The notes under the pieces were generated by a model. It was not told where the DNA came from. It did no database searches and worked only from the letters and a program-made list of their open reading frames with translations. Of a DNA stretch of 64,000 bases, positions 1,952-57,831 are shown piece after piece; positions within the stretch are counted from its first letter, which is position 1; each line of letters begins with the position of its first letter. Where the stretch lies: the NCBI GenBank assembly GCA_016186795.1, contig JACPKY010000002.1:716943-780942 (forward strand), read 5' to 3'. Source of the DNA: Candidatus Gottesmanbacteria bacterium. GTDB taxonomy: Bacteria; Patescibacteriota; Microgenomatia; 2-02-FULL-39-11. The position numbers were made by a program, and so were the translations under genes.

Positions 1952-1960
1952 TGCTATAAT
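1952..1960 (+). promoter_or_regulatory. Extended -10 element TGCTATAAT, 6 nt upstream of the ATG (predicted leaderless transcript)
   Basis: The sequence is cctgcTATAATgattacATG, with the -10 hexamer at 1955-1960 and the ATG at 1967. No Shine-Dalgarno is present. Confidence 0.45.
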
Positions 1961-1966
1961 GATTAC

Positions 1967-3049
1967 ATGGATGTGACTCAGAAACCTTTGGATACTGAGG
2001 AGTTAGCGAAACTTCGGAAAAAAGTTGCCGAGGCGCCCCTTCCACCAGAGCTCGCGGAAAAGGCTTCAACTCTTATCGATCGAACATTCTTAAGTCTTAA
2101 ATATGGAGGACAAATTACCGGATTTGATCTTGTTGCCAACTACATTGATTGGATTACGAGTCTACCGTGGAATGCGCGAAGCGATGACGTTTTGGATATA
2201 AACCATGCCAAAGACATCCTCGATAAACATCACCATGGGCTCACTGAAATAAAGGATAGAATTCTTGAGTATCTTTCGGTTATGAAACTAAACATCGAAC
2301 AATCGAAAACTCATCCTGATCAGCCGAATCATAACTTCATGCGGGCACCGATACTTTTTTTCGTCGGTCTCGTTGGTACGGGAAAAACTACAATTGCTCA
2401 AGCAATTGCCGAGGCGATGGGGAGAGCTTTTGTTCGTATTCCCTTTGGTGGTATGGGATCTGCACTTGATCTTCGTGGTGAATCACGCATCCATCCTGAT
2501 GCTGAAGTAGGTCTCGTCATGAAGGCATTACGAAGAGCAAAGACTAAAAATCCAGTCATCCTTCTTGATGAACTTGATCGTGTTACTGACCATGCACGTG
2601 CTGATATCATGGGTGTGCTTATTGAACTTCTCGATCCAGAACAAAACATCGCATTCACCGATCACTACATTGAGTTTCCTTTTGATCTATCCGAAGTTTT
2701 ATTCATAGCTACAGCCAATAATACTGGAAATATATCAACAGCAGTTATGGACAGACTCGAACCAATCCAGATGCCATCCTATAATGACGAGGAAAAAATT
2801 ATTATCGGAAAATCATATGTATTTCCCAAGGTGAGAGAGAGTGCTGGACTGTCATCTCAACAACTTCAAATCAATGATGATGTTTGGTCTCTTATTGTCC
2901 GCCCTTTAGGATTTGATTCAGGTATTCGGACATTAGAACGAACAATTAACGGAATTTGTCGAAAAGTTGCGCGAATGATCGTTGAAGGTAAAATTCAAAC
3001 TCTTCAAATAACTCAAGAGAATGTGAAACAATATCTTCCCACATGGTAA
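1967..3049 (+). CDS. Lon-family AAA+ ATPase lacking both N-terminal substrate domain and C-terminal peptidase domain
   Basis: YIDWITSLPWNARSDD...HHGLTEIKDRILEYLSV matches the Lon long-helix region. Walker A GLVGTGKTTIA and ...ILLDELDRV...LDPEQNIAFTDHYIEFPFDLSEVLFIATANN...MDRLEPIQMPSY match the Lon AAA+ module. The ORF ends about 360 aa in with no S16 peptidase domain. Confidence 0.7.
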   Translation: MDVTQKPLDTEELAKLRKKVAEAPLPPELAEKASTLIDRTFLSLKYGGQITGFDLVANYIDWITSLPWNARSDDVLDINHAKDILDKHHHGLTEIKDRILEYLSVMKLNIEQSKTHPDQPNHNFMRAPILFFVGLVGTGKTTIAQAIAEAMGRAFVRIPFGGMGSALDLRGESRIHPDAEVGLVMKALRRAKTKNPVILLDELDRVTDHARADIMGVLIELLDPEQNIAFTDHYIEFPFDLSEVLFIATANNTGNISTAVMDRLEPIQMPSYNDEEKIIIGKSYVFPKVRESAGLSSQQLQINDDVWSLIVRPLGFDSGIRTLERTINGICRKVARMIVEGKIQTLQITQENVKQYLPTW

Positions 3050-5452: not shown

Positions 5453-5461
5453 TGCTATAAT
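5453..5461 (+). promoter_or_regulatory. Extended -10 TGCTATAAT, 11 nt upstream of the ftsK ATG
   Basis: The sequence is cttgcTATAATaagctactgccATG. Confidence 0.4.
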
Positions 5462-5472
5462 AAGCTACTGCC

Positions 5473-7635
5473 ATGGCGAGACGATATAGAAGAAGACGAC
5501 ATCTCCACTTCAAACTTAAAAAAGAAACGGTATTTACGATTGTCGCAGTTCTCCTAATGGGAGGTGCAGCACTTGTTGGTATTTCTTATTTTCAAAGTGG
5601 CACGGCACTTATTTTCATTAACGGTTTAGTTGGAGAAAAGTTTGGTTGGGGCGGGATACTCCTTCCTATTGTTCTTCTTTCTCTCTCGACTCTTTTTCTT
5701 GGTATCAAAACCTCATTTACCAAACCGAACGTTCCTCTTGGACTTCTCCTTACCTACATTACGCTTCTGGCATTGACCCAAAGTGGATTTATAGGCCTGA
5801 AAATTTGGAATAATTTTGCCACACTCGTTTCCGGATTTGGCGCTTTCGTCCTTCTCCTTGGAACGTTCTTCATTGGGCTTATTGTACTCTTTAACACATC
5901 AATCGATGAAATTATCACAGGATTCTCACAACTTTCGTCAGATTTTCTAGGGATGTTGAAAAATATTCCGATCTTTTCTTTTCTACAGTCGAAATCCAAA
6001 CCTCTCTTTGTTGAAAAACTATCCCTGAAAACTTCAGGCGATATGAAAAAAGATGAAAAAGTAGATGCTGGATCAAAAAACATCCCAGAGAAAAAAACCC
6101 CAGCCTCTCTTTCGGAACAGACGAAAGAACTCATTTCCGCAAACCTTATTTCAAATACTTCTGCTTCAACGGTGTGGGAATATCCTCCTTTATCACTTCT
6201 AACAGATTCTGCCGGCCAAAAAGCTGACCGCGGAGATCTGAAACAAAATGCTCATATTATTGAAAAAACACTTGAAAGTTTTGGAGTAACTGCCCGCGTT
6301 GCAGAAGTAAATTTAGGACCTGCAGTCACACAGTATGCTCTGGAGATTGCTATGGGAACAAAACTCTCCAAACTCACAGCTCTTTCAAATGACCTTGCGC
6401 TTGCCCTTGCTGCGCCAACTGGCCAAATTAGAATCGAGGCGCCAATTCCAGGAAGGAGTCTCGTTGGCATTGAAATTCCAAATCGCTCTCTGGAGTTTGT
6501 AACACTTCGACACATGCTATTTTCTGATACAATGCGAAAAAGCAAAGATAAGCTTTTAGTTGCACTGGGACTTGATGTTTCAGGATCTCCAGTTACAGCA
6601 AATATCGCAAAAATGCCTCATGTTCTTATTGCAGGGACAACTGGAAGTGGAAAGTCCGTCCTTTTAAATACATGGATCTGCTCTCTTCTTTTTCGCACAA
6701 CACCTTCAGAAGTACGACTTATTCTTGTAGATCCAAAAAGAGTCGAACTAACGGTCTATAATAGTATTCCCCATCTATTAACACCTGTTATTGTTGAACC
6801 AGACAAAATTTTGTCTGCTCTCAAATGGTCCCTCTCGGAAATGGATAGGCGGTATAAACTATTTTCTGAAGTAGGTGTAAGAAATATCGATGGGTACAAC
6901 GAACTTTCTGGCTTTCAGGCCCTCCCATACATTGTCATTTTGGTAGATGAACTTGCAGACCTCATGGCCTACGCACCGGTTGAGGTCGAAGATGCAATCT
7001 GCAGACTTGCTCAAATGGCACGAGCAACTGGTCTTCACTTAGTGGTGTCGACACAGCGACCATCTGTTGATGTCATTACTGGTCTTCTCAAAGCCAATAT
7101 TCCAGCAAGAATTGCTTTCAATGTCTCCTCAATGATTGATTCTCGCGTTATTATTGATATGCCGGGGGCTGAAAAACTCCTTGGACGTGGAGATATGCTT
7201 TTTATTCCTCCGGATCAAGCAAAACCGACTAGAATTCAGGGTGCATATATTTCAGAGGCTGAAGTTGGAAGGCTTGTTGATTTTCTAAAGTCAAAAAATA
7301 TTCCCGTACAATATACGACTGAAGTCACCTCTATGCCCCAAACATGGAAGAAGTCTGGCGGGAGTGGCATATCACAAACTATAGATTCAGGAAGAGATAA
7401 TCAGTTTGAGGAAGCTGTTCGAGTTGTTTGTCAATATGATAGAGCTTCTGCATCGCTTCTTCAACGTAGACTCTCTATTGGCTATGCCAGAGCCGCAAGA
7501 ATTCTTGACCAGTTGGAAGAAGCAGGAATAGTGGGGCCAGGAGAGGGATCAAAACCGCGTGATGTTCTTGTGAGAAATGCAGAAGAATTCTTAGCACAGC
7601 AAAACCAACCTGCCGAAACCTCCCCACAAAACTAA
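5473..7635 (+). CDS. ftsK: DNA translocase FtsK/SpoIIIE
   Basis: N-terminal TM helices, Walker A GTTGSGKSVLLNTWICSLLF, the FtsK alpha/beta domains, and a C-terminal winged-helix gamma domain (...ASASLLQRRLSIGYARAARILDQLE). Confidence 0.9.
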   Translation: MARRYRRRRHLHFKLKKETVFTIVAVLLMGGAALVGISYFQSGTALIFINGLVGEKFGWGGILLPIVLLSLSTLFLGIKTSFTKPNVPLGLLLTYITLLALTQSGFIGLKIWNNFATLVSGFGAFVLLLGTFFIGLIVLFNTSIDEIITGFSQLSSDFLGMLKNIPIFSFLQSKSKPLFVEKLSLKTSGDMKKDEKVDAGSKNIPEKKTPASLSEQTKELISANLISNTSASTVWEYPPLSLLTDSAGQKADRGDLKQNAHIIEKTLESFGVTARVAEVNLGPAVTQYALEIAMGTKLSKLTALSNDLALALAAPTGQIRIEAPIPGRSLVGIEIPNRSLEFVTLRHMLFSDTMRKSKDKLLVALGLDVSGSPVTANIAKMPHVLIAGTTGSGKSVLLNTWICSLLFRTTPSEVRLILVDPKRVELTVYNSIPHLLTPVIVEPDKILSALKWSLSEMDRRYKLFSEVGVRNIDGYNELSGFQALPYIVILVDELADLMAYAPVEVEDAICRLAQMARATGLHLVVSTQRPSVDVITGLLKANIPARIAFNVSSMIDSRVIIDMPGAEKLLGRGDMLFIPPDQAKPTRIQGAYISEAEVGRLVDFLKSKNIPVQYTTEVTSMPQTWKKSGGSGISQTIDSGRDNQFEEAVRVVCQYDRASASLLQRRLSIGYARAARILDQLEEAGIVGPGEGSKPRDVLVRNAEEFLAQQNQPAETSPQN

Positions 7636-8301: not shown

Positions 8302-8330
8302 TTGACTCTCTATCCTATCTTTATTAGAAT
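8302..8330 (+). promoter_or_regulatory. Candidate promoter TTGACT-17-TAGAAT
   Basis: TTGACT at 8302-8307, a 17-nt spacer, TAGAAT at 8325-8330, then 14 nt to the ATG at 8345. Confidence 0.4.
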
Positions 8331-8344
8331 GGTATGATCTGCCT

Positions 8345-8620
8345 ATGATTGAGCCGACTCAAATACTTCTTTTTACTATCATAGCAATCCTTACTATTAT
8401 TCTCCTTTTCATTGGTTGGCAGATTTATCAGATACTTGAAGAAATTAGAAAGATGCTAACTAAGTTTAATCTCATGATAGATGATGCTAGAAACTTTACA
8501 GACACGATTGGAAAATCTGTCCATAGTCTTAATGGATTTACTGAGGGAGTTCGAGCAGTCTTAAAAGTATTGACCACCTTTAAAAGGGATAAAACGAAAG
8601 ATGGAAATCGATCAAAGTAA
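8345..8620 (+). CDS. Small single-pass membrane protein (DUF948/YtxG-like?)
   Basis: N-terminal TM LLFTIIAILTIILLFIGWQIY followed by a helical region. It overlaps the next small gene. Confidence 0.35.
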   Translation: MIEPTQILLFTIIAILTIILLFIGWQIYQILEEIRKMLTKFNLMIDDARNFTDTIGKSVHSLNGFTEGVRAVLKVLTTFKRDKTKDGNRSK

Positions 8621-14508: not shown

Positions 14509-14535
14509 AAAAAAACCTCCCTTTCAGGAGGTCTC
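14509..14535 (-). terminator. Attenuator terminator hairpin (GAGACCUCC-UGAAAG-GGAGGU) followed by U7, on the minus strand
   Basis: The plus strand reads AAAAAAACCTCCCTTTCAGGAGGTCTC. The reverse complement gives a GC-rich stem followed by seven U residues, about 80 nt upstream of the aspartokinase ATG. Confidence 0.6.
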
Positions 14536-14566
14536 ATTTGCATCGACAATTATCTTATCGCATTAA

Positions 14567-14635
14567 CTACGAGACCTCCTTTGTGGAGGTAGTAGTGGTA
14601 GTAACAATAAGATTTCGCAAGCGACGTAAAACCAT
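14567..14635 (-). CDS. Threonine-operon leader peptide (22 aa: MVLRRLRNLIVTTTTTSTKEVS)
   Basis: Minus-strand ORF ATG GTT TTA CGT CGC TTG CGA AAT CTT ATT GTT ACT ACC ACT ACT ACC TCC ACA AAG GAG GTC TCG TAG. It carries five consecutive Thr codons, then Ser and another Thr. The codons overlap segment 1 of the attenuator, and the stop codon lies just 3' of segment 2. Confidence 0.55.
   Translation of the reverse strand: MVLRRLRNLIVTTTTTSTKEVS
14571..14590 (-). promoter_or_regulatory. Attenuator hairpin A (ACCUCC-ACAAA-GGAGGUCUC); its 3' arm is perfectly complementary (9 bp) to the 5' arm of the terminator, forming the antiterminator
   Basis: Segment 2 (GGAGGUCUC, plus coordinates 14571-14579) is the reverse complement of segment 3 (GAGACCUCC, plus coordinates 14527-14535). 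Segments 1 and 4 repeat ACCUCC and GGAGGU. Confidence 0.6.
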
Positions 14636-14645
14636 ATTTGGTACG

Positions 14646-14674
14646 ATTGTATAGAACCTATCCTTCGTTGTCAA
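14646..14674 (-). promoter_or_regulatory. Candidate promoter for the thr leader: TTGACA-17-TACAAT (minus strand), with the -10 placed 10 nt before the leader ATG
   Basis: Reverse complement of tgtcaa at 14669-14674 and of attgta at 14646-14651, separated by 17 bp. Confidence 0.45.
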
Positions 14675-23068: not shown

Positions 23069-24970
23069 TTACTCCACTACTTCCCCCTCTTGCACATCTT
23101 CTTTCTTCGACTTTTTCTCATCTTTTTTCTCCCCGTTCCCTTTCTCCTCTTGTTTTGTCTCTTTTCCTGTTTGAGGTTGTTGTTGATACATCGACTGACC
23201 TATCTTTTGCAGAGAATCTGAAAGATCTTTTGTTTTTGCCTCAAGATCTTCTTTTGTACCAGTATCAAGTATTGATTTAAGGGCTGTAATCTTTTCCTCT
23301 ACCTCTTTTTTGATATCGGGAGATACCTTCTCACCTGCATCTTTAACTGATTTCTCTGCAACATAGATCATGTTATCAGCTTTATTGCGCACCTCTATCA
23401 TTTCTTTCTTTTTCGAATCCTCCGATGCATGGGCTTCCGCTTCTTTCGTCATCTTCTCAATCTCATCTTTTGAAAGACCGGTTGAACCGGTTATTTTAAT
23501 ACTCTGAGATTTCCCTGTCGCTTTATCTTTTGCGGAAACACTTAATATTCCATTGGCATCAATATCAAACATCACCTCAACTTGGGGAATCCCACGAGGT
23601 GCAGGTGGAATACCATCAAGAATGAATCGTCCAAGTGATTTATTATCTGCTGCCATTGGTCGTTCTCCTTGGAGCACATGGACTTCAACCGACGTCTGGT
23701 TATCCGCAGCAGTTGAAAAGATCTCTGATTTAGATGTCGGTACAGTTGTATTCCTCTGAATAAGCGGTGTCATAACTCCACCAAGCGTTTCGACACCAAG
23801 AGTTAACGGTGTAACATCAAGAAGCACAACATCTTTCACGTCTCCAGTGAGTACCCCTGCTTGGACGGCAGCACCAACTGCAACAACCTCATCTGGATTT
23901 ACCGATTTATTTGGTTCTTTCCCAAAAAAGTTCTTTACTACCTCGGTGACCTTTGGCATTCTGGTCATTCCACCAACCAAGACAACTTCGTCAATATCGC
24001 TTTTTGTAATTTTTGCATCTTTAAGAACCGCGCCAACCGGTTCCAAGGATTTATCAATTAGACCTCCGACTAAGCTTTCCAATTTGGAGCGGGTAAGTTT
24101 TTTCACCAAATGGAGCGGTCCCTCTTTCCCTTGAGTAATAAAGGGAAGATTTACCTCTGCCTCAAGTGCAGTTGAAAGCTCTATCTTTGCCTTTTCGGCT
24201 GCGTCTCGAAGCCTTTGCAGAGCCTGAGGATCTCTCCGCAGATCTACTCCGTTTTCTTTCTTAAATTCATCCGCAAGGAAATCAAGAATCACTTTATCAA
24301 AATCATCTCCTCCGAGATGTGTATCTCCATTTGTTGCTTTCACTTCATACACACACTCACCAAGTTCAAGTACTGAGATATCAAACGTACCACCACCAAG
24401 ATCGTACACCGCAACCGTATGCGCATGTTTCTTATCAAGACCGTATGCCAAAGCTGCAGCTGTTGGTTCATTCAGAATCCGTTTGACAGTGAGTCCCGCA
24501 ATTTCTCCTGCTTGTTTGGTTGCTTGTCTTTGAGAGTCATCGAAGTATGCAGGAACAGTAATAACTGCTTCAGTTACTTTCTGACCAAGATACCCTTCGG
24601 CATCTGCTTTAATTTTTTGTAAAATCATGGCTGAGATCTCTTGAGGAGTAAACGTTCTTCCCTCAACCTCAACAACCGCCATTCCATCTCGACCCTCTTT
24701 AATAACGTATGGAAGCCATTTTATATCATGCTGTACTGATTTATCGTTAAACTTTCTCCCCATGAGTCTTTTGATAGAAAATATTGTCGACTTGGGGTTT
24801 ATTACCATTTGCCGTTTCGCAACATCTCCCACTATTCGTTTGATTGGATCAACAACAGATGGAATGACGTTTCGGCCCTCAGAGGAATGGATGACTTTAG
24901 GATTTCCTCCCTCCATAACTGCTACACAGCTATTCGTTGTACCTAAATCAATACCGATTATTTTTGACAT
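23069..24970 (-). CDS. dnaK: Chaperone DnaK (Hsp70)
   Basis: [33 protein letters not shown], and a C-terminal lid region. A strong Shine-Dalgarno (AAGGAGG) lies upstream. Confidence 0.95.
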
Positions 24971-25008
24971 ATATTTTCCTCCTTACAAATGAATGAATGG
25001 TTCATAAT

Positions 25009-25524: not shown

Positions 25525-26249
25525 TTTGCCGCAACTTCATTAATGAGATTTCCCATATACCGAACGAGTGGAATGATTTTCGGATAATTTAATCGAGAAG
25601 GACCAATGACACCAATGACGCCTTGATGATGTGGCGAAGAAATCTTGGTAAATACTCCCCCACATTGATTGAGAAACTGCCGCCCCAGATCGTCACCGAG
25701 GAGTACTGAAAGAGGTTCTTCATTTGACGTTATAGAACTTGCGACATCCCACCAAAACTCATACTCATCAAGAGTATTGAGTAAATGTTTGGTGATATCA
25801 ATATCAAAAAATTCCGGCATATCGAGAATATTTGATATACCTGAGGAATAAAGATGGCCCTCATCAGTTGCTGCCAGTGACATCGTTTTTGTATTTTTTG
25901 CAAGAGCCCGTGTTGCCTCCCTTAAGAGTTTATCCGTTTCTTCTCGGTAATCCCAAATTTTTTGTTTTACAGTCACTTCCTCTGTCACCGAAAGTTCCTT
26001 TGTCTTCATGAGCTTCTCAACATACAATCTCATTGCTTCAGGAGTGGGCGATCGACCAGCTGAAGTATAAGGCTGTTTTAAATATCCATACTGGGTAAGC
26101 TTCACCATCTCATTACGAATTGTAGCCGGTGAAACACCAAGGTTATACTTTTTATCCAATGTTTCAGATCCCACGGGTTCGGCGGTTTCAATAAACTCTT
26201 CTATAATTACTCGCAGTATCTGAAGTTGTCTTTCACTCAGAGAATTCAT
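25518..26249 (-). CDS. hrcA: Heat-inducible transcription repressor HrcA
   Basis: MNSLSERQLQILRVIIEEFIETAEPVGSETL...ATIRNEM winged-HTH N-terminus. The gene order hrcA-grpE-dnaK-dnaJ matches the canonical operon. Confidence 0.8.
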   Translation of the reverse strand: MNSLSERQLQILRVIIEEFIETAEPVGSETLDKKYNLGVSPATIRNEMVKLTQYGYLKQPYTSAGRSPTPEAMRLYVEKLMKTKELSVTEEVTVKQKIWDYREETDKLLREATRALAKNTKTMSLAATDEGHLYSSGISNILDMPEFFDIDITKHLLNTLDEYEFWWDVASSITSNEEPLSVLLGDDLGRQFLNQCGGVFTKISSPHHQGVIGVIGPSRLNYPKIIPLVRYMGNLINEVAANW

Positions 26250-26276
26250 AGATCATCACTGGTCACAGATTGTAAT

Positions 26277-26303
26277 TAGCACTAAGATATCATGACTGCT
26301 AAT
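26277..26303. promoter_or_regulatory. CIRCE operator (HrcA binding site)
   Basis: TTAGCACTA-agatatcat-GACTGCTAA matches the consensus TTAGCACTC-N9-GAGTGCTAA at 8/9 and 8/9 positions. It lies about 28 bp upstream of the hrcA start, in the spacer shared with the divergent hydrolase gene. Coordinates are approximate, within 1 nt. Confidence 0.75.
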
Positions 26304-26355
26304 CATTGTCAAGAGAAGTACTTTTTTCTTTTCACACTTCGATTTCCATGCTACG

Positions 26356-28284
26356 ATGGAAAAGATGAAACATGCAGTCTTTCTCATCATCTGCATAGTT
26401 GCTCTGCTCGGACTCCTTTCAACACAGGAAAAAGTTCGACAATTTCTTTCAATAGCAGCACCCACTCCAGCAAATATTACAATTGATGTACAAAATAGTA
26501 AACAGCCTCTCTTTCTCCCGTGGCTAAATTTTGCACAGGGAGGTGAAGAACCTACTCAGATGCTTTCTCCAGCCATTTCAGCTATGCAGCAACTGCGTCC
26601 CCAATACGTACGAATTGACCATATCTATGATTATTATGTTCAAATGGCGAAAGGAAATGATGGCTATTCATATGATTTCACCCAACTTGATAAAACAGTT
26701 GATGATATACTGACGATGGGCGCGCTCCCTTTTTTCAGCCTTTCATACATGCCAAAGATTTTCACTGAAAACGAATCAGTCATTGATCAACCTTCTAATT
26801 GGCAAGATTGGTCGAATCTTGTACAAAAAACCATCGAACACTATAGTGGAAAGAAGTTCAAAAACCTTACTCATGTATACTATGAGTTGTGGAATGAACC
26901 GGAACTTCCACAATTTGGATCATGGAAACTCTCCTCTCCAAAAGATTACCGCATGCTCTATTACTACACTTCCATTGGTGCACAGAATGCGCAAAACGTC
27001 AATGAATTTTCACTCGGCGGCCCGTCAGTTGGATCCTACTACCCTTCCTGGGTTTCTGATTTTGTGGCGTTTGTGGAACAAAATAACCTTCGACTCGACT
27101 TTTACTCTTGGCATAGATACGGTACAAATCCAGAAATATTTGTGAACGACGCCAAAAATATTCGGTCTAAACTAGCACGGTTTCCCACGTATAAAGATAT
27201 CCCACTCATTCTTTCTGAATGGGGATTAGACTCTGACAATACTGATCGGAATAATTCCGATGCTGCGGGAGCATTTACAATAGCAGCTGCGAGGAATTTC
27301 ATAAATCGAATTGAGAAAGCATTTGCGTTTGAAATTAAAGACGGTCCTCCCCCTAATGGTGGAAAATGGGGACTTCTTACCCATGAGAGAACAACAACAC
27401 CTCTTTCACGAAAACCGCGATACAAGGCATTTCAAACCTTAACGAAACTTTCGGGAGAACTCCTTCCACTTTCTGGGGAAGGAACATTCGTATCGGCAAT
27501 AGGAACAGTCGAAAACAACGCATATAAAGTTATTATCAGTAATTATGACCTTGCAGGAAAAAATGCTGAAAATGTACCAGTCACGTTTTCGCGTCTTGCC
27601 CCGGGACAATACACCCTCACCTACACGTATCCTCTTTCTGAAATTACTGGTCAGTATGACGATACAACAACAACTGGTGTACTATCTCACTTGTTTCCAC
27701 TTCAACCGAACTCCCTCTTATTTCTTCAATTGACTCCGGTATCACAATTTGCAGACCGCTCTCAAGGCGCAAGTGGTACATCAGATGATTTTTCGCTCCC
27801 TCTCACTCATCTTGAAACTTCGCTTATCTTCACAACACCAACCTTTTATCTCACTTCCCAAGGAAGTGTTGAATTTGACCTTCAGGTTTTATGGGATGAT
27901 AACAATGGAGCATTTTATATATTTGAAATCCCCTACACAGATTCAGGAGGATCTATTAGAAAACTATCACTTGTTAAACAAACAACGGGAAAAAATCACT
28001 TCCTTACTCTTTTAACTGAAGAGGGAACCAGTCAAAAAATTACACATCGAATTGATTCGTGGGAGAAAAATTCCTGGCATCATATAACTGTTAAATGGGA
28101 TAGCAAAGATATATCCCTTGAAGTTGATGGGAAAAACGCTCTAGAATTTCCCCTTCGTCTTACAATCAATGAAGGCAAAACACTTACTTTTCCAGCCTCT
28201 CCAATAGCTATTGATAACCTTATTATCCGAATGAATGGGAAAATTCTTATAGAACGACACTTCAACAGAGATATAGACTCATAG
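26356..28284 (+). CDS. Secreted clan GH-A glycoside hydrolase (GH39/GH5-like) with C-terminal LamG/ConA-like domain
   Basis: Signal peptide MEKMKHAVFLIICIVALLGLLS. Acid/base motif YYELWNEPE and nucleophile region LILSEWG. The C-terminal 200 aa are beta-rich (HITVKWDSKDISLEVDGKN...), consistent with a lectin-like domain. Confidence 0.5.
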   Translation: MEKMKHAVFLIICIVALLGLLSTQEKVRQFLSIAAPTPANITIDVQNSKQPLFLPWLNFAQGGEEPTQMLSPAISAMQQLRPQYVRIDHIYDYYVQMAKGNDGYSYDFTQLDKTVDDILTMGALPFFSLSYMPKIFTENESVIDQPSNWQDWSNLVQKTIEHYSGKKFKNLTHVYYELWNEPELPQFGSWKLSSPKDYRMLYYYTSIGAQNAQNVNEFSLGGPSVGSYYPSWVSDFVAFVEQNNLRLDFYSWHRYGTNPEIFVNDAKNIRSKLARFPTYKDIPLILSEWGLDSDNTDRNNSDAAGAFTIAAARNFINRIEKAFAFEIKDGPPPNGGKWGLLTHERTTTPLSRKPRYKAFQTLTKLSGELLPLSGEGTFVSAIGTVENNAYKVIISNYDLAGKNAENVPVTFSRLAPGQYTLTYTYPLSEITGQYDDTTTTGVLSHLFPLQPNSLLFLQLTPVSQFADRSQGASGTSDDFSLPLTHLETSLIFTTPTFYLTSQGSVEFDLQVLWDDNNGAFYIFEIPYTDSGGSIRKLSLVKQTTGKNHFLTLLTEEGTSQKITHRIDSWEKNSWHHITVKWDSKDISLEVDGKNALEFPLRLTINEGKTLTFPASPIAIDNLIIRMNGKILIERHFNRDIDS

Positions 28285-28288: not shown

Positions 28289-29941
28289 CTATAAATCATT
28301 AACTATCTCCTCTGATGTATCAATAAGCACATCTTGTCTTTTATGACGGATGTTTGCGGCAATTCGTGTCAAAATTGTTACCTGTGGTACTTCCAGAAAC
28401 CAAGCAAGGAAAAAATATACCGAGAGTCCCATCACCGTAGAAATACCAGTAAGGAGAAAGAGGTTGATAGTCCGAGTTGTGTCAAAGACTAGCTGGTCAA
28501 AAAGTTTTATCGGGATATAAAGTGCCACACCAGTCACAATGCCGGAGAGAAAAATTTTAAGAGTGGGCATAAGAAGTTCATATCGATTAAATGCACCTAT
28601 TTTTCTATCCAGAAGAAATAAAAGAAAGACCATGTTTACAATACTTGCGATCGATGCGGACAATCCCAAAGCCCATACTTCCCATCTATATACTTTAATA
28701 AAAATGATAGAAAGAGCTGTATTCATTAAAACGCTCACCGCTCCGACAAGTAAAGGAGTTTTACTATCATGGAGGGCATAAAAGCTTCTCGCAAGGAGAT
28801 GAATGATCGCTTGTGCAAAGAGAGAAATACTAAAATATGCAAGTGTTCTACTCGTCTCAAAAGTCGTTGTTATATCAAAAAGAGAACGTATACCATAGAC
28901 CAACCGTACGACTGGAAATCTCAGTACTATTAAAATAGCCGATAGCGGCACTACAAGAAACAAAATCTGATGGAATGATGATAAAAATATTTTTTTGAAT
29001 GTTTCAATATCTTTCTTGGCATGAAGGGAGGAAAGAGAAGGAAAAGTCGCTTGTGCGATACTCGCCCCAAAAAGTCCTATTGGTAACTGCTGGAGATGTT
29101 GAGCAAAATTAAAAGCAGTTACCGACGCGGCTCCAAGAAGTGTGGAAAGAACCAAATCAATCGTTGTATCGATCTGAGAGACGGCAAGTCCCACAGTTCT
29201 CGGAAACATAAGTTTTCCGACTTCGCGTGTACCAGGGTCCTTCGTGTCGAATACAAACCGATATCGATACCCATGAGCAAAAACAATAGGTATTTGAATC
29301 ACTGCAAAAAGAAAGGCTCCTAGCACAACTCCCAAAACAGGTCCATACAATCCCACATAAGGAGAAAGAAATACTATTCCAAGAATAATACCAACGTTGT
29401 ACACAATTGGAGCAATAGAAGGGAGGAGAAAATTGCGAAATGACTGCAAAATACCTGTAAAAAAATTTCCGATGATAAGGGGGAAAACCTGAGCAACAAT
29501 CATTATTTGTGTAAACGATGCCATTTGCACAATTTCTCCTTCTGTAAAACCCGGTGCAAGAATATGAGATATCTCTTTGGCAAAAATCACCATGGGCAAA
29601 GAAAAGATAAAAAAGAGTAACGTACCAATTGTAATGATGGAAGATGCCATACGGAAGGCAGCTTCTTTCCCTTTTGTATCAAGATGTGCAGTAAAAACTG
29701 GAATAAACGCAGAAGAAAGCGCACCCATAACCAGTAATTCAAAAATCATATTCGGAATCCGGAATGCTGCAATGTAAACACCAAGTTGGGAGGGAGTAAA
29801 GTGTGTTGCAAGCAACCAATCTCTCACAAGCCCCAAAACACGCGACAGTAAAACGGCAACCATAATTACTGTTGCTGCCGATATGATGCTTGTTTGACTT
29901 TTGGAAAAGAAACGGAATGTATGCTTAAACAGCTTGACCAT
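28289..29941 (-). CDS. murJ: Lipid II flippase MurJ (MviN)
   Basis: MVKLFKHTFRFFSKS...AATVIMVAVLLSRVLGLVRD is a typical MurJ N-terminus, and the protein is polytopic (about 14 TM). Start moved to the internal Met. Confidence 0.8.
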   Translation of the reverse strand: MVKLFKHTFRFFSKSQTSIISAATVIMVAVLLSRVLGLVRDWLLATHFTPSQLGVYIAAFRIPNMIFELLVMGALSSAFIPVFTAHLDTKGKEAAFRMASSIITIGTLLFFIFSLPMVIFAKEISHILAPGFTEGEIVQMASFTQIMIVAQVFPLIIGNFFTGILQSFRNFLLPSIAPIVYNVGIILGIVFLSPYVGLYGPVLGVVLGAFLFAVIQIPIVFAHGYRYRFVFDTKDPGTREVGKLMFPRTVGLAVSQIDTTIDLVLSTLLGAASVTAFNFAQHLQQLPIGLFGASIAQATFPSLSSLHAKKDIETFKKIFLSSFHQILFLVVPLSAILIVLRFPVVRLVYGIRSLFDITTTFETSRTLAYFSISLFAQAIIHLLARSFYALHDSKTPLLVGAVSVLMNTALSIIFIKVYRWEVWALGLSASIASIVNMVFLLFLLDRKIGAFNRYELLMPTLKIFLSGIVTGVALYIPIKLFDQLVFDTTRTINLFLLTGISTVMGLSVYFFLAWFLEVPQVTILTRIAANIRHKRQDVLIDTSEEIVNDL

Positions 29942-29956
29942 TGGCCCTGTTCCTAG

Positions 29957-29962
29957 TATACT
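29957..29962 (+). promoter_or_regulatory. -10-like TATACT, 7 nt upstream of the rpsT ATG (leaderless arrangement)
   Basis: The sequence is cctagTATACTacaacacATG. Confidence 0.35.
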
Positions 29963-29969
29963 ACAACAC

Positions 29970-30263
29970 ATGCCAATTACAGAAGGCGCCAAGAAAAAGC
30001 TACGACAGGACAAGAAAAGAACCGAGAGGAATTTACGGAGTAAAAATACATTAAAACAAGCGATAAAAAAACTGAAAAAAACTCCTTCGCAAAAAAATCT
30101 CTCTCTTGTATTTCGCCTCCTTGATATTTCAGGAAAAAAGAATATGTTTCACAAGAATAAAATCAAGAGGTTGAAATCAAAATTCTCCCAAATTTCGAAA
30201 ATGAAAAGCAGTAAAAAACAAGAATCAGTGACAAAAAAGGGGCAAAACAGAGCAAAAAAATAG
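29970..30263 (+). CDS. rpsT: 30S ribosomal protein bS20 with Lys-rich C-terminal extension
   Basis: MPITEGAKKKLRQDKKRTERNLRSKNTLKQAIKKL is the bS20 N-terminal helix pattern. The ORF-track start at 29901 is a TTG and represents an upstream extension. Confidence 0.75.
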   Translation: MPITEGAKKKLRQDKKRTERNLRSKNTLKQAIKKLKKTPSQKNLSLVFRLLDISGKKNMFHKNKIKRLKSKFSQISKMKSSKKQESVTKKGQNRAKK

Positions 30264-30332
30264 AGAGCAATTTCTTCATTCTTCTCCTTTTTTCCACTCG
30301 AAGTCCTTCATCACTCGTAGTATGATAGAACT

Positions 30333-30890
30333 ATGCCTGCCCGCCATAAGCCTGTCAATATCAACCTTATCATAAAAGATGAACTTGGAGAGTCTTTTTC
30401 TGGACAACTTCTTAAATGGGCACTCACCTATGGAAGATATACTATTATCATTACGCAGATCATTGTCCTCTCTGTTTTTTTCCTCCGGTTTAAATTAGAT
30501 AGAGATCACACAGATCTAAAAGAATCGGTTGCCCAAAAACAGGCGATTGTTGAATCTGTCACAGACCTCGAGGTAGAAATTCGAAGGGTTCAAGACCGTC
30601 TCGCAAATATCAAGAAGTTGTCTCAAAATCAGGAAGTCCCATTGAATGTCATCCTTTTTTTCCAGGATCAATCACCGTCAGATACTCTCTTTGATTCTTT
30701 CAATCTCAATGGGAATAAACTGGCATTTTCTGCATCAGTTGCAAACCTTCGCAGTTTTTCATTTTTTATGAATGTACTGCAAGAAAATAAAAGCTTTTCT
30801 GAGGTAACGCTCAGCGAAATAAGTAGACGTCCAAATGGAAGAGTCGAATTTAAAATCGATACAAAAATTAATCCCATTCAATTCCAATGA
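30333..30890 (+). CDS. PilN-like type IV pilus inner-membrane component
   Basis: N-terminal KPVNINLIIKDE (similar to the INLLP PilM-binding motif), one TM, and a coiled-coil plus alpha/beta periplasmic domain. It overlaps the next gene by 4 nt. Confidence 0.45.
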   Translation: MPARHKPVNINLIIKDELGESFSGQLLKWALTYGRYTIIITQIIVLSVFFLRFKLDRDHTDLKESVAQKQAIVESVTDLEVEIRRVQDRLANIKKLSQNQEVPLNVILFFQDQSPSDTLFDSFNLNGNKLAFSASVANLRSFSFFMNVLQENKSFSEVTLSEISRRPNGRVEFKIDTKINPIQFQ

Positions 30891-33750: not shown

Positions 33751-33788
33751 ATCCTACTTACTATGGTAATATAAAGTATTATTTTATC

Positions 33789-35624
33789 ATGAACTTTCCC
33801 CTTCTGAAAGATTTAAATAGTGAACAGTTTCGCGCCGTTGAGGAAAACGAAGGGCCAATTCTTATCCTAGCAGGTGCAGGTTCTGGCAAAACCCGTGTCC
33901 TTACATTCAAAACTGCATACCTGATTCAGGAGAAAAACGTTGATCCCGGAAATATTTTTATGGTGACGTTCACCAACAAAGCAGCAACCGAAATGAAAAA
34001 GCGTATAGAGATGTTACTTACAAGAAGTCAAAAAGAATCCTTTCGTACCCCATTTGCAGGGACGTTCCATGCATTCTGTGCTCGAATACTTCGAAGAAGC
34101 GGAGGATCAATTGGGATTCCTCCAAACTTCAGTATCTATGATACGCAAGATAGTAAAGAAGCTATAAAAGAGGTTATGAGAAAATTAGATCTGGACCAAA
34201 AGAAATACAATCCAGCTTCAGCAGCTGTCATGATCTCACAGGCGAAAAACGAACTTATCTCAGAGATAGATTACTTCCACTATGTACGAGGTCATTTTCA
34301 AGAAGTAATTGCTGGCGTATATGTTGAATACCAAAAATTACTCCGAAAAAATGGAGCGTTAGACTTTGATGATCTCATCATGGTAACTGTCACACTTCTT
34401 CGAACTGATACGTCATGCGCCACCTACTATCAAAGTCTCATTCACTACCTTTTAGTTGATGAATATCAAGATACAAACCACGGCCAGTATGAATTGACAA
34501 AACTCTTATCATGGGGAAGGAAAAATATTTGCGTCGTGGGAGACGCTTCACAAAGTATTTATGCATGGCGTGGTGCAGATTTCCGAAATATCATAAAGTT
34601 TCGAGAGGATTATCCAGAGGCCAAAATATTTCATTTAGAACAGAACTATCGATCGACAAAAAAAATCCTTGAGGCGGCAAATAGTGTCATATCGAAAAAT
34701 ACATCTCATCCGATCCTTACTCTCTGGACAAAAAAACCAAGCGGATACCCTATTATGGTTTACCAAGCGAGTAATGAACACCATGAAGTCGACCTCATTG
34801 TTATGGAGATTAAAAAAGAACAATCATTCCACAACAGACCTTACTCTGATATTGCAATTCTTTACCGAACCAATGCACAAAGTCGGATCTTTGAAGAAGC
34901 ATTTCTCCGAGCAGGAATTCCGTATATCCTCGTTGGCGGAATACGTTTCTATGAACGGAAAGAAGTAAAAGATGTCCTTTCGTACCTACGACTTTTGGAC
35001 AACCCGAACGACTCGGTATCGCTAACACGCGTACAGAAAATAGGTAAAAAGAGATCCACTCAGTTTTTGGAATTTCTCTCGGAGTTTCAATCATCAACAC
35101 GTCTTCAAAAGATGAGCACAACTGATCTCCTCACGAAAGTTTTGGAAATAACAAACTACCGTGCGTTATATAATCCAGAGATTGAAGAAGAACTTTCTAA
35201 ACTTGAAAATATCCGTGAGTTAAACTCTGTTGCTACTGAATTTCCACGTCTTCCTGATTTTCTTGAAAATGTTGCACTGGTCGAACAAGAATATTTCCCA
35301 AACTTGCCGAGTAATCGTACAAAACAAACCGACGCAATCACTCTTATGACTTTGCATGCCGCAAAGGGACTTGAATTTCCTCTCGTTTTTATGGTCGGCA
35401 TGGAAGAAGGATTATTTCCTCACGCAAAAACACTTTTTGAACCACTGGAGCTTGAAGAAGAGAGAAGACTCTGCTATGTGGGAATGACTCGGGCTATGGA
35501 AAAACTTTATCTAACCTATGCAAATCGTAGACTTTTCTTTGGCCAGAAAAATAGCAATCAAATTTCTCGTTTTCTTTTTGATATCCCTGAGCATTTACTT
35601 CAAATGGCTCTCGGCACATTCTAA
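33789..35624 (+). CDS. UvrD/PcrA/Rep-type superfamily 1 DNA helicase
   Basis: LNSEQFRAVEENEGPILILAGAGSGKTRVLT (motif I), DEYQDTN (motif II), QNYRST, and VGMTRA. Start moved to the internal Met at 33789 to avoid a divergent overlap with tpiA. Confidence 0.8.
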   Translation: MNFPLLKDLNSEQFRAVEENEGPILILAGAGSGKTRVLTFKTAYLIQEKNVDPGNIFMVTFTNKAATEMKKRIEMLLTRSQKESFRTPFAGTFHAFCARILRRSGGSIGIPPNFSIYDTQDSKEAIKEVMRKLDLDQKKYNPASAAVMISQAKNELISEIDYFHYVRGHFQEVIAGVYVEYQKLLRKNGALDFDDLIMVTVTLLRTDTSCATYYQSLIHYLLVDEYQDTNHGQYELTKLLSWGRKNICVVGDASQSIYAWRGADFRNIIKFREDYPEAKIFHLEQNYRSTKKILEAANSVISKNTSHPILTLWTKKPSGYPIMVYQASNEHHEVDLIVMEIKKEQSFHNRPYSDIAILYRTNAQSRIFEEAFLRAGIPYILVGGIRFYERKEVKDVLSYLRLLDNPNDSVSLTRVQKIGKKRSTQFLEFLSEFQSSTRLQKMSTTDLLTKVLEITNYRALYNPEIEEELSKLENIRELNSVATEFPRLPDFLENVALVEQEYFPNLPSNRTKQTDAITLMTLHAAKGLEFPLVFMVGMEEGLFPHAKTLFEPLELEEERRLCYVGMTRAMEKLYLTYANRRLFFGQKNSNQISRFLFDIPEHLLQMALGTF

Positions 35625-35634: not shown

Positions 35635-35640
35635 TATAAT
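35635..35640 (+). promoter_or_regulatory. TATAAT -10 box 11 nt upstream of the femAB-like ATG
   Basis: The sequence is atcgTATAATatactcacagtATG, with no Shine-Dalgarno. Confidence 0.35.
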
Positions 35641-35651
35641 ATACTCACAGT

Positions 35652-36674
35652 ATGCAAATCTTAGAAGTTTCTGCATCATACCAGAAATCATTTAATAAAC
35701 TCGCTACTCATCCTCTTCAATCCTGGGAGTGGGGCGAGTTCCGGCAAAAAACTGGAGTACGCGTTGTTCGGCTTGGTAAGTTCAATAATGGTGCGCTTTC
35801 TGAGGTTCTCCAGATGACAATCCATCAATTACCTGGAGGATTTACTATCGGGTACGTTCCAAAATCACACATCCCCAGTCAAGCATTGTTTCAGGAGCTT
35901 TATAAAGTTGCAAAATCCAATTCATGTATATTCATTAAATTTGAACCGAATGTGATCGAAAATCCAAAACAAATACATCTCTTAGGAGAGCTTAAACTTA
36001 TTCAATCACCTCATCCGCTATTTACCAAATACACATTTCAATTAGATTTAGAACAGTCGGAAGAAACACTTCTTAAAAACATGCATCCGAAAACACGATA
36101 TAACATCAAAGTGGCACAAAAAAATGGTGTTGTAGTAAAGGAGGAAACATCAACTCGTGCCTTCCAAGCATATTTGGATCTAACATTCGCCACTTCAAAG
36201 CGGCAGGGGTTTTTTGCCCACAACCGAGATTATCATGGCAAAATGTGGGATACTCTCCGACCTTCAGGAATTGCACACTTATTGTGTGCAGAATATGAAG
36301 CTTTGGGACAGTCAAAAATTCTTACCGCCTGGATTCTTTTCCTCTTCCACAATATATTGTACTACCCGTACGGCGCATCAAGTTCTGAATATCGAAATGT
36401 TATGGCATCAAATCTTATGATGTGGGAAGCAATCCACTTTGGGAAAAAACAGGGAGCAAAGCTTTTCGATCTCTGGGGATCACTCGGTCCAAATCCAGAC
36501 TCCAGTGATCCTTGGTATGGATTCCATCGTTTTAAACTTGGCTATAGCCCAAAGCTTATCACATTCGTTGGCAGCTTTGATGCAATAGTTAATCCATACG
36601 CGTATAGAGTGTATACCTCTATTTATTTTCTTCGAGAAAAACTCCTTACGTTGAAACGAGTTCTTACTCCATAA
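35652..36674 (+). CDS. FemAB-family peptidoglycan interpeptide-bridge aminoacyltransferase
   Basis: LQSWEWGEFRQKTG... at the N-terminus and a GNAT-like duplicated fold, typical of FemX/FemAB. Confidence 0.65.
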   Translation: MQILEVSASYQKSFNKLATHPLQSWEWGEFRQKTGVRVVRLGKFNNGALSEVLQMTIHQLPGGFTIGYVPKSHIPSQALFQELYKVAKSNSCIFIKFEPNVIENPKQIHLLGELKLIQSPHPLFTKYTFQLDLEQSEETLLKNMHPKTRYNIKVAQKNGVVVKEETSTRAFQAYLDLTFATSKRQGFFAHNRDYHGKMWDTLRPSGIAHLLCAEYEALGQSKILTAWILFLFHNILYYPYGASSSEYRNVMASNLMMWEAIHFGKKQGAKLFDLWGSLGPNPDSSDPWYGFHRFKLGYSPKLITFVGSFDAIVNPYAYRVYTSIYFLREKLLTLKRVLTP

Positions 36675-42700: not shown

Positions 42701-42709
42701 TGCTATAAT
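42701..42709 (+). promoter_or_regulatory. Extended -10 TGCTATAAT 7 nt upstream of the metG ATG (predicted leaderless)
   Basis: The sequence is ttcttgcTATAATacgcttcATG. The same cttgctataat 11-mer occurs upstream of ftsK. Confidence 0.45.
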
Positions 42710-42716
42710 ACGCTTC

Positions 42717-44165
42717 ATGGAAAAATATTACATAACCAGCGCTATTCCGTATGTAAATGCTTCACCACACATTGGGCATGCGCAAGAATTTATCTATGCG
42801 GATTGTATACGACGGTACCAATTGTTAAAGAAGCAAAAGGTTTTCTACCTCTGTGGTGCAGATGAAAATGCATTAAAAATTGTCCAAGCAGCAGAAAAAA
42901 AGGGAGAAACACCGCAGGTATTTTGTGATAAAAATCAGCAGGAATTCAGAAATCTTGCACAAAAACTCAACGTTTTTTTTGACGCGTGGCAAAGGGGAAC
43001 AGATAGAAACCATTTTGTTTCTTCGCAACATCTGTGGAGTCTCTGTAAGAGAAATGATGATATATATAAGAAATCCTATTCTGGTCTTTATTGCGTGGGG
43101 TGCGAAACGTTTTATACACCGGAGGAACTCGACGAGAAAGGCGAATGTTTTGAACATCCTGGAAAACAACTTGATAAAGTTGAGGAGGAGAACTATTTTT
43201 TCAAACTCTCGAAATATCAAAGTTTTCTTGAAAATTTAATTGAAAAAGACAAGCTCAGAATTATACCGAAGAATCGTAAAAATGAGGCATTATCATTCAT
43301 TCGAAGAGGTCTTGAAGATTTCTCAATTTCGAGAAGTCGGAAACGAGCAAAAAACTGGGGAGTACCAGTTCCAAATGACCCCGCCCAAATTATGTATGTC
43401 TGGTTTGATGCTCTCAATATTTACCAAAGCGGGATAGGGTTTGGATGGAATACTCCTCTTTATAAAAAATGGTGGCCACAGGATGTAATGGTTATCGGAA
43501 AAGGAATTCTTCGTTTTCATGCGATCTATTGGCCAGCAATTCTCCAATCGGCAAATCTTTCGCTTCCGCGCTCACTCTTTGTCCATGGATATCTAACGGT
43601 CAATGGTCAAAAAATGTCTAAAACGTTAGGAAATGTCATTGATCCGAACGTATTTCTAGATGCCTACGGAACCGATGCTGTACGATACTATCTTTTACGA
43701 GAGATCCCAGCATACAGTGATGGAGATTTTTCCGACCGACGGTTCAAAGAGGTTTATAATTCTGACCTTGCAAATGGATTAGGAAATATCGTAGCTAGAG
43801 TTGCAAAACTATGTCAAACCGATAATATTCCCGGAATCATCAACTATTCAAAAGACCTCGATAATCTCCAATCCGCTATCCGGACTGGAGGATATTATGA
43901 TTCTCTTGAACGATTTGAGTTCAATCTCGCATTGGAAGAATTATGGAAAGAAATAAAAAGCTTGGATATTAAACTTGATGAAGAGAAGCCTTGGGCGAAA
44001 ACGAGAGAAGAGAGACACGAATTTCTCACTTTTTACGCTAAACGATTATTAAGCTTGGCACACGAGTTGCAGATATTTTTACCCATAACAGCAAAGAAAA
44101 TTGCTGATCAATTTGTGAATCAGGAAATTAAATCCCAACCACCACTATTTCCAAGGATTGTATAG
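42717..44165 (+). CDS. metG: Methionyl-tRNA synthetase (minimal form)
   Basis: YITSAIPYVNASPHIGHA (the HIGH motif), the CVGCETFY Zn knuckle, and KMSKTLGN (the KMSKS motif). Confidence 0.9.
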   Translation: MEKYYITSAIPYVNASPHIGHAQEFIYADCIRRYQLLKKQKVFYLCGADENALKIVQAAEKKGETPQVFCDKNQQEFRNLAQKLNVFFDAWQRGTDRNHFVSSQHLWSLCKRNDDIYKKSYSGLYCVGCETFYTPEELDEKGECFEHPGKQLDKVEEENYFFKLSKYQSFLENLIEKDKLRIIPKNRKNEALSFIRRGLEDFSISRSRKRAKNWGVPVPNDPAQIMYVWFDALNIYQSGIGFGWNTPLYKKWWPQDVMVIGKGILRFHAIYWPAILQSANLSLPRSLFVHGYLTVNGQKMSKTLGNVIDPNVFLDAYGTDAVRYYLLREIPAYSDGDFSDRRFKEVYNSDLANGLGNIVARVAKLCQTDNIPGIINYSKDLDNLQSAIRTGGYYDSLERFEFNLALEELWKEIKSLDIKLDEEKPWAKTREERHEFLTFYAKRLLSLAHELQIFLPITAKKIADQFVNQEIKSQPPLFPRIV

Positions 44166-50087: not shown

Positions 50088-50156
50088 ATGCCCACTATAT
50101 CATCCTAAACCCGCTTTTTCAAGGAAAAATGAGAGAAACCATTGAGCTTTCTTCAA

Positions 50157-50202: not shown

Positions 50203-51858
<1,656 letters not shown>

Positions 51859-52175: not shown

Positions 52176-52196
52176 ATCAACCTCCTTCTTTAGATT

Positions 52197-52223: not shown

Positions 52224-52246
52224 TTTAAAAGGAGAGAAAAAACTTG

Positions 52247-54786: not shown

Positions 54787-54795
54787 GCTTATGTT

Positions 54796-57823: not shown

Positions 57824-57831
57824 AAATGTGA

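Follow-up and report, generated by a model that had tools for sequence, protein, structure and literature searches.

A promoter -10 box recurs a few nucleotides upstream of start codons in a 64-kb stretch of a Candidatus Gottesmanbacteria genome (contig JACPKY010000002.1; the whole stretch is referred to below as the window), often in the extended form typified by the sequence TGCTATAAT. These boxes are probably sigma-70 extended -10 promoters that would give rise to leaderless or nearly leaderless mRNAs, and such starts would be the norm in about half of the genome's transcription units. The features observed are the motif itself, its position, its enrichment, the accompanying promoter elements, its conservation, and a bias toward ATG start codons. 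Leaderless or nearly leaderless transcripts had been proposed in a first-pass annotation of the window; that proposal is now strongly supported by the positional peak, the TGn and -35 elements, the conservation, and the ATG bias, all of them properties of the DNA sequence. The window has a GC content of 38 to 41% (~39%). Judged by the proteins encoded in it, the host is a member of the Patescibacteria, also known as the candidate phyla radiation (CPR), within the Microgenomates group, and its methionyl-tRNA synthetase (MetRS) is 57 to 66% identical to MetRS of Gottesmanbacteria metagenome-assembled genomes (MAGs). The Lon-type AAA+ protein encoded at 1967 to 3049 is 100% identical to an NCBI protein of Candidatus Gottesmanbacteria.

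With both strands counted, the window contains exactly three copies of TGCTATAAT. Shuffled versions of the window contained 0.47 copies on average, and none of 100 shuffles contained three or more. All three copies lie on the coding strand, 6, 11, and 7 nt before the ATG codons of a Lon-like gene, ftsK, and metG, respectively, and the ftsK and metG copies share the 11-mer cttgctataat. The start codons of these three genes are well anchored: more than 100 homologues of 359 to 363 amino acids (aa) fix that of the Lon-like gene, the N terminus MARR... is common to ftsK of two other loci (L066 and L023), and the metG start is fixed by the conserved N terminus M..FY.TSAIPY. On re-examination, the positions and spacings given in the first-pass annotation for the three copies and for the boxes of rpsT, a FemAB-family gene, and a thr leader peptide were all correct. 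None of these six starts has a Shine-Dalgarno (SD) core within the last 20 nt, as had also been noted. A repeated or mobile element as the source of the three copies was ruled out. Because their flanks share nothing beyond the 11-mer and, in ftsK and metG, a nearby ttcgtt, the copies are independent promoters.

To quantify the positional signal, sigma-70 hexamers were scored as matches of at least 5/6 to TATAAT, with A at the second and T at the sixth position obligatory. The first start codon of each open reading frame (ORF) was taken as the gene start in the large-scale counts, and spacers of 30 to 54 nt served as the background. We compared the window with 25 Gottesman-like metG loci (L005 to L029), 8 independent Lon-like loci, and 46 other CPR loci; Lon loci from gut metagenomes (37% GC) and loci from DPANN archaea (147 genes) were used as controls. 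With a spacer of 6 nt, there were 73 hexamers per 1,000 ORFs in the window and 84, 72, and 74 in the Gottesman-like, Lon-like, and other CPR sets, respectively. This peak rises 7- to 12-fold above the background of 6 to 10 per 1,000 ORFs. The first-pass annotation had named enrichment of -10 boxes near starts as the property to look for, and it is present in the window and in all three sets of related loci.

A second count, independent of start calling, was anchored on the motif: exact TATAAT hexamers were located, and the distance was recorded to any ATG that began an ORF with 100 codons or more. The 40 exact hexamers on both strands of the window are followed by such ATGs at spacers of 6 (two cases), 7 (one case), 11 (two cases), 20, and 27 nt only. 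Five hits fall within three spacers, as opposed to ~0.07 per spacer elsewhere. For the 281 exact hexamers in the 25 Gottesman-like loci, the numbers of long-ORF ATGs at spacers 6 through 12 were 10, 5, 4, 5, 4, 7, and 5 (40 in total), compared with a single case over spacers 0 to 5 and ~0.8 per spacer at 13 to 30. The range of 6 to 12 nt agrees with the spacings described in the first-pass annotation.

The gut-metagenome loci had no -10 peak (4 and 0 hexamers per 1,000 at spacers 6 and 7) and displayed ~200 SD cores per 1,000 per position at spacers 7 to 10. No -10 peak was found in the DPANN loci, where the noise of 7 to 27 per 1,000 per spacer was too high to decide the matter. Given the absence of a peak in the gut control (and in the noisy DPANN control), neither the method nor AT-richness is the source of the signal. 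When automated starts and the strict 5/6 rule were applied to first genes of transcription units, the element was found in 27% of them in the window and the Gottesman-like loci, as opposed to 6 to 13% in control windows.

The start-proximal hexamers are accompanied by other promoter features. The dinucleotide TG at -15/-14 was found with 26 to 38% of them, compared with 5.6 to 6.0% of all other hexamers in the same loci (p = 3e-5 to 5e-9). Similarly, a -35 box with a match of at least 4/6 was present in 31% versus 13% of cases (p = 0.003, first genes). Both elements are contacts of RNA polymerase, and we know of no role for either in ribosome binding. The start-proximal hexamers are read as promoters rather than ribosome sites because the TGn and -35 elements are enriched with them. 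An unbiased base profile of 829 CPR starts displays T at -12, A at -11, A at -9/-8, and T at -7, as well as T/G at -15/-14. The start codon is ATG in 92% of the leaderless class and in 69% of the other genes of the CPR loci, a gap that stems in part from over-extended ORFs among the latter, and all 16 candidates in the window open with ATG.

The base immediately before the ATG (-1) is T in ~50% of starts and G in 8%, in every class of genes and in both CPR and control loci. Its use as a pyrimidine -1 signal of a transcription start site (TSS) was dropped, as SD-led genes and the gut control show the preference equally. It may in part be an artefact of start calling.

The location of the box is conserved even where the sequence around it is not. 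Upstream of metG, the sequence cannot be aligned among the 25 Gottesman-like genomes (57 to 66% protein identity), and yet 19 of the 25 relatives keep a TAnAAT-type hexamer of at least 5/6 before the start. It is found at 6 to 8 nt in 16 of them and at 9, 11, or 12 nt in the others, and many of the metG boxes carry TGn. Upstream of the Lon-like gene, TAnAnT is found 6 to 10 nt before the ATG in six of eight relatives, five of which have TGn as well. Retention of the position across such diverged genomes implies that proximal placement of the box is under selection. Enrichment at spacers 6 to 7 was 4- to 9-fold when loci titled Gottesmanbacteria, other Microgenomates, Parcubacteria groups, and Saccharibacteria were analyzed separately.

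At sigma-70 promoters, transcription starts ~7 nt after the -10 hexamer. The site of transcription initiation and the mode of ribosome recruitment at the boxes described here would follow from this spacing. The boxes would act as housekeeping promoters, mostly of the extended -10 type (TGnTATAAT) with a weak or moderate -35 element. With a spacer of 6 to 7 nt, the 5' end of the mRNA would coincide with the A of the AUG, yielding a true leaderless mRNA, and a spacer of 9 to 13 nt would leave a 5' stub of 2 to 6 nt, too short to hold an SD. The ribosome would then bind the 5'-terminal AUG directly, without pairing between SD and anti-SD. As for the remaining genes, those internal to operons would rely on translational coupling or an SD, and a few first genes would keep leaders, several of them to accommodate a regulatory element.

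Starts in the window were curated by hand in ~29 transcription units. Nine of them have a -10 box at 6 to 7 nt and seven at 9 to 13 nt (Table 1). Extended -10 forms comprise the three copies of TGCTATAAT along with TGGTATGAT, TGCTACGAT, and TGGTAGAGT. TTGACA-like -35 boxes are found at 16 to 17 nt in rpsT, the thr leader, the PEGA gene, valS, and the SurA-like and YqeY-like genes; within the first 20 kb, the thr leader promoter is the closest match to sigma-70 (11/12).

Table 1. Start-proximal -10 boxes, contrasting start sites, and the thr terminator in the window
Gene or feature	Elements and spacing	Site	Gene or ORF	Strand	Remark
Lon-type AAA+ ATPase (360 aa)	Extended -10 TGCTATAAT (1952-1960), gattac (6 nt), ATG 1967	1952..1969	1967-3049	+	
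ftsK	Extended -10 TGCTATAAT (5453-5461), 11 nt, ATG 5473	5453..5475	5473-7635	+	Predicted 5' untranslated region ~4 nt
Membrane ORF of 91 aa (ORF91)	TGGTATGAT, 6 nt, ATG	8330..8347	8345-8620	+	
thr attenuator, intrinsic terminator	GAGACCTCCTGAAAGGGAGGTTTTTTT	14509..14535		-	Upstream of lysC-hom-asd-DUF7790-like ORF-thrC
thr leader peptide MVLRRLRNLIVTTTTTSTKEVS	TTGACA, 17 nt, TACAAT, 10 nt, ATG 14635	14633..14674	14567-14635	-	
dnaK (contrast)	SD AAGGAGG, 7 nt, ATG	24968..24984		-	Operon-internal
hrcA (contrast)	TTGACA-17-TATCTT, no SD	26247..26312		-	Overlain by CIRCE 26276-26302; leader ~27 nt
Secreted GH39-like protein	TGCTACGAT, 7 nt, ATG 26365	26349..26367		+	
rpsT	TTGACC, 17 nt, TATACT (29957-29962), 7 nt, ATG	29934..29972	29970-30263	+	
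murJ	TATACT, 13 nt, ATG 29941	29939..29960		-	-10 inside palindrome TAGTATACTA
PilN-like gene	TATGAT, 6 nt, ATG	30321..30335	30333-30890	+	
UvrD/PcrA helicase (uvrD)	TATTAT, 6 nt, ATG 33789	33777..33791		+	
FemAB-family gene	TATAAT (35635-35640), 11 nt, ATG	35635..35654	35652-36674	+	
metG	Extended -10 TGCTATAAT (42701-42709), 7 nt, ATG 42717	42701..42719	42717-44165	+	
PEGA/SH3 protein	TTGAAA, 17 nt, (TGa)TATAGT, 6 nt, ATG	50085..50122	49251-50087	-	
groEL (contrast)	SD AAGGAGG, 7 nt, ATG	51841..51857		-	Operon-internal
groES (contrast)	TTGACA-17-TAAAAT, SD AAGGAGG (52181-52187), ATG 52175	52173..52250		-	CIRCE-like 52197-52223 (14/18)
Solute-binding protein, candidate start	TTGACC, 17 nt, TATCAT, 9 nt, ATG 54786	54784..54824		-	
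ValRS-like synthetase (valS)	TTGAAG, 16 nt, TATAAT, 6 nt, ATG 57847	57813..57849		+	Promoter overlaps tsaD 3' end
SurA-N-like gene	TTGCCA, 17 nt, TATAGT, 10 nt, ATG	61406..61447	60731-61408	-	
YqeY-like gene	TTTACA, 17 nt (spacer ends TGG), TAGAGT, 9 nt, ATG	61897..61937	61456-61899	-	

The assignment of several of these starts calls for comment. The UvrD and ValRS-like starts are backed by N-terminal homology even though the box guided their choice. The helicase start in Table 1 places the beginning of the Pfam UvrD domain near residue 9, and with that of the ValRS-like gene, the N-terminal length is within 1 residue of that of Thermus thermophilus ValRS (1gax). The GH39-like start, one of two ATGs 3 codons apart, is less certain. 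The solute-binding protein could alternatively start at TTG 54840/54843, which is SD-led behind GGGGAGG. ORF91 has an additional promoter-like site, TTGACT-17-TAGAAT at 8302 to 8330, located 14 nt upstream.

The first-pass annotation took the gene at 57832 (start region 57832 to 57849) for a leuS-type synthetase gene. This reading is revised here to ValRS-like, as the best match among solved structures is T. thermophilus ValRS (E = 8.5e-22). The longest ORF of the gene opens at a GTG and has the -10 box as its codons 2 and 3 (TAT AAT). An ATG five codons further on agrees better with the N-terminal length of ValRS. Between rpsT and murJ, the 10-nt palindrome TAGTATACTA at 29954 to 29963 presents TATACT on both strands, 7 nt from rpsT on the positive strand and 13 nt from murJ on the negative strand. 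It is possibly a bidirectional promoter built on the symmetry of the -10 box.

SD sites are present in the window, where SD cores peak at spacers 5 to 7 (73 to 91 per 1,000 versus a background of 11). The first-pass annotation listed clear SD sites before dnaK, groES, groEL, asd, and lysC and divided the genes into two classes of translation initiation, with heat-shock transcripts SD-led. We found AAGGAGG before dnaK, groES, and groEL and GGAGGAG before asd, but only AAGGAAA before lysC, which had been credited with a clear GGAGG. The division holds for dnaK, groES, and groEL. It does not hold for hrcA, the first gene of the hrcA-grpE-dnaK-dnaJ cluster, or for dnaJ, both of which lack an SD, and asd and lysC are not heat-shock genes. 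Among relatives, two of three dnaK orthologues have no SD. Strong SDs are found mostly on operon-internal genes (dnaK, groEL, asd) or behind regulatory leaders (groES, lysC); asd, hom, and lysC are all located inside or downstream of the thr attenuator. The distribution of SDs is better explained by where a gene lies in its transcript and by whether it needs a regulatory leader than by a division into chaperones and the rest. Overlaps are seen for about one-third of co-directional neighbors, mostly of 1, 4, or 7 nt, and are suggestive of translational coupling. SD-less first genes with 17 to 34 nt between the best -10 box and the ATG are found as well, namely alaS, SET, rmuC, NIF3, and hrcA.

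Copies of the controlling inverted repeat of chaperone expression (CIRCE) are found at hrcA and groES. The hrcA copy, TTAGCAGTC-N9-TAGTGCTAA, overlaps the promoter and matches at 16 of 18 positions (2 mismatches; 0.02 such sites expected), whereas the groES copy is degenerate and placed between the -10 box and the SD. The hrcA CIRCE is kept in two related loci (L008 and L027), and both the CIRCE and the SD of groES are kept in the orthologues of two others (L018 and L029). It is because of CIRCE regulation that the hrcA and groES operons keep start codons distant from their promoters.

Judging from the strong AAGGAGG sites in the window, the 16S rRNA of the host presumably has an anti-SD (CCUCC at its 3' end). 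Loss of the anti-SD has been reported only in a subgroup of Parcubacteria, and CPR ribosomes have a shortened bS1 and miss uL30 and bL9 (PMC9297842). The 64-kb window contains no match to an Rfam family at gathering thresholds, no rRNA, and no tRNA, and a regular-expression search for the conserved 3' region found no 16S rRNA in loci L001 to L084.

Several observations weigh against leaderless starts as the general explanation or weaken the numbers behind it. Some of the first start codons used in the large-scale counts are wrong. The GH39, valS, solute-binding protein, murJ, and uvrD starts were picked among alternatives with the -10 box in view, which makes them partly circular. Loci L005 and L006 are near-duplicates, and the NCBI titles of many loci are unreliable. 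Under the strict 5/6 rule, only ~18 to 19% of all ORFs in the relatives show an excess, and most genes there lack both a proximal -10 box and an SD. The window does not exceed shuffles in loose sigma-70-like matches (55 versus 52.4, 52 versus 45.5, and 66 versus 48.2), which leaves the best-scoring sites and their positions as the only informative ones. This last result, together with the ~700 hexamers of at least 5/6 in the window, is what would be expected if the boxes had arisen by chance in an AT-rich (39% GC) genome with mis-called starts. We regard chance as extremely improbable, in view of the shuffling result for TGCTATAAT, the sharp spacer-6 peak that is repeated in three independent locus sets and absent from the gut-bacterial control, and the metG, Lon-like, and ftsK starts, which are set by the N termini and lengths of homologues. 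It is also conceivable that the boxes are real but secondary promoters, the bulk of the mRNA coming from upstream promoters or read-through with an SD-less leader and the leaderless route being minor. In support of this, ftsK has a second promoter-like site, TTGACA-17-TAGGAT at 5395 to 5423, 49 nt upstream of the ATG, and a leadered ftsK transcript may exist beside the near-leaderless one. ORF91 is in a similar position, and the leadered, SD-less first genes such as alaS and rmuC indicate that the host can translate mRNAs of this kind. Nevertheless, the intergenic regions of rpsT, metG, PEGA, valS, and the thr leader have no better promoter match than the proximal site, or no other, and the position of the proximal box is conserved across diverged genomes. 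We regard secondary promoters as an unlikely explanation.

The distribution of the element among genes bears on whether it is a promoter at all. In the window, it precedes 2 of 31 internal genes and 4 of 15 first genes. In relatives, tightly packed "internal" genes (24%) and first genes (20 to 27%) are preceded by it at similar frequencies, which again weighs against a promoter. According to the rule used in GeneMarkS-2, a motif that extends beyond first genes points to a non-SD ribosome site and not to a promoter. TAnAAT could then be an A/U-rich recruitment signal on leadered mRNAs, of the group B or Bacteroidota type, read by the ribosome or bS1 ~6 nt before the AUG. The scarcity of SDs agrees with such a signal, as several CPR groups among the relatives have hardly any enrichment of SD cores, and so does the generally A-rich region from -14 to -4. 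However, the hexamer consensus is exactly TATAAT, TG is 5 to 6 times more frequent than in the background, and -35-like boxes are found at 16 to 18 nt, in the "internal" class too. The few internal window genes with the element and the lack of a peak in the AT-rich gut-bacterial control are likewise not expected of a ribosome signal. Rather than the same motif before all genes, free of promoter features, we found the -10 consensus with TGn and -35 elements. This argues that the element would be a promoter in first-gene and internal classes alike, and a ribosome signal is very unlikely. We read the boxes before tightly packed genes in relatives as putative promoters embedded in the ends of upstream genes, as in ...gtgacagaaaaagTATAATagatccATG of loci L020, L021, and L026.

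Two further arrangements were seen among the relatives. In L020, L021, and L026 (PMT_2), in L011 and L022 (tatD), and in L007, a TATAAT found 6 nt before an ATG lies within the final codons of the gene upstream. In some relatives, the box is directly followed by an SD-like GGGGAG (TATAATAGGGGAG...ATG), and the predicted TSS would fall within the SD.

The thr leader peptide belongs to a complete predicted thr-type attenuator at 14509 to 14674 on the negative strand, which consists of a promoter, a leader peptide ORF, and a terminator and is located upstream of the operon named in Table 1. The leader peptide of 22 aa contains the run of regulatory codons TTTTTST. Within the leader ORF, GGAGGTCTC provides a 9-nt antiterminator complementarity to GAGACCTCC in the 5' arm of the terminator, and the fold has a z score of -5.1. 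There is no match to the Rfam family Thr_leader and only a sub-threshold match to Phe_leader. The leader peptide would be translated without an SD from a 5' untranslated region of ~3 nt.

Other genes near the boxes deserve mention in their own right. The product of the Lon-like gene is limited to the AAA+ module and the Lon lid, with no protease domain, and this stand-alone form is kept at the same length in the more than 100 homologues, which are of the Gottesmanbacteria type. The gene that follows it with a 7-nt overlap (the pair spans 1967 to 3630) encodes a uracil-DNA glycosylase, not a protease. A HEPN/RnlA-like RNase toxin gene at 8956 to 9456 on the negative strand faces two small unannotated ORFs on the positive strand, 8345 to 8620 (ORF91) and 8601 to 8966; the region from 8601 to 9456 may be a toxin-antitoxin or defence module. 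The window MetRS is 48 to 51% identical to MetRS of DPANN MAGs titled Aenigmatarchaeota or Micrarchaeota (L056, L059, L063, L064, L069, L075, L076, L079, and L081). These are as close to it as the MetRS of many other CPR groups, which hints at a MetRS type shared or transferred between CPR and DPANN.

We found no paper on leaderless mRNAs in CPR or Patescibacteria, including Saccharibacteria and Microgenomates, in a literature search; a CPR transcription-start data set is cited for Nanosynbacter lyticus (PMID 35975994). The starts described here are a real, statistically robust, and conserved feature. They represent a new lineage for a known organisation of gene starts and involve no new mechanism. 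Leaderless mRNAs are regarded as an ancestral form of initiation that is independent of bS1, and most of the documented bacterial cases come from Actinobacteria and Deinococcus-Thermus. A leaderless architecture with weak SD use in Gottesmanbacteria would carry this organisation into a very large uncultured radiation with unusually reduced ribosomes. More tentatively, and with considerable doubt, leaderless starts from extended -10 promoters might be the default throughout the CPR (Microgenomates, Parcubacteria, and Saccharibacteria), with promoters placed in the 3' ends of upstream genes and the SD nearly abandoned. If so, this regime of translation initiation would be paired with the reduced CPR ribosome, which has no uL30, often no bL9, and a shortened bS1. 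There is a practical side as well. Gene finders that assume an SD will misplace starts, as illustrated by the misleading upstream start codons of rpsT, valS, uvrD, and murJ, and promoter-proximal ATGs can be used to correct them. Moreover, the window would hold an attenuator of the classical type whose leader peptide is translated without an SD.

The features described here have counterparts in known systems. The CIRCE over the hrcA promoter and the degenerate copy before groES correspond to HrcA/CIRCE regulation elsewhere, with nothing unusual. As in the extended -10 promoters of Escherichia coli and Gram-positive bacteria, the -10 box is close to consensus with TG one base before it, and a -35 box is missing or weak (Lon-like, ftsK, metG, GH39, ORF91, YqeY). 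Extended -10 promoters of E. coli normally precede SD-bearing leaders, whereas here the predicted transcript begins at the start codon. The thr attenuator resembles the classical one of E. coli in its short ORF with regulatory codons (T-T-T-T-T-S-T), its hairpins, which exclude one another, and its terminator ahead of the biosynthetic genes. It differs from known thr attenuators in its host, a CPR bacterium, and in that its function is predicted from sequence. Leaderless leader peptides of amino acid attenuators occur in Corynebacterium and other Actinobacteria, and the thr leader ORF, ~3 nt from the predicted TSS and with no SD, would be like them.

The closest parallel is group C of GeneMarkS-2, in which a Pribnow box is located 6 to 8 nt from the starts of first genes in ~25 to 50% of operons and an SD serves part of the rest (PMC6028130). 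This group is known from Actinobacteria and Deinococcus-Thermus, for example from Mycobacterium tuberculosis, Streptomyces, Corynebacterium glutamicum, and Deinococcus deserti (PMC6028130). The window resembles it in the sharp peak of -10 boxes at a spacer of 6 nt, in the share of first genes with a box (27% under the strict rule), in the SD sites on part of the rest, and in the use of ATG by all 16 candidates; the spacer peak is the same and the share of transcription units comparable or higher. The differences lie in the host, a CPR bacterium of the Microgenomates with a low-GC genome of ~1.1 Mb rather than a high-GC actinobacterium or Deinococcus, and in the prominent extended -10 TGn and the very low SD use in relatives. 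In those relatives, moreover, the proximal promoters are predicted inside the 3' ends of upstream genes as well.

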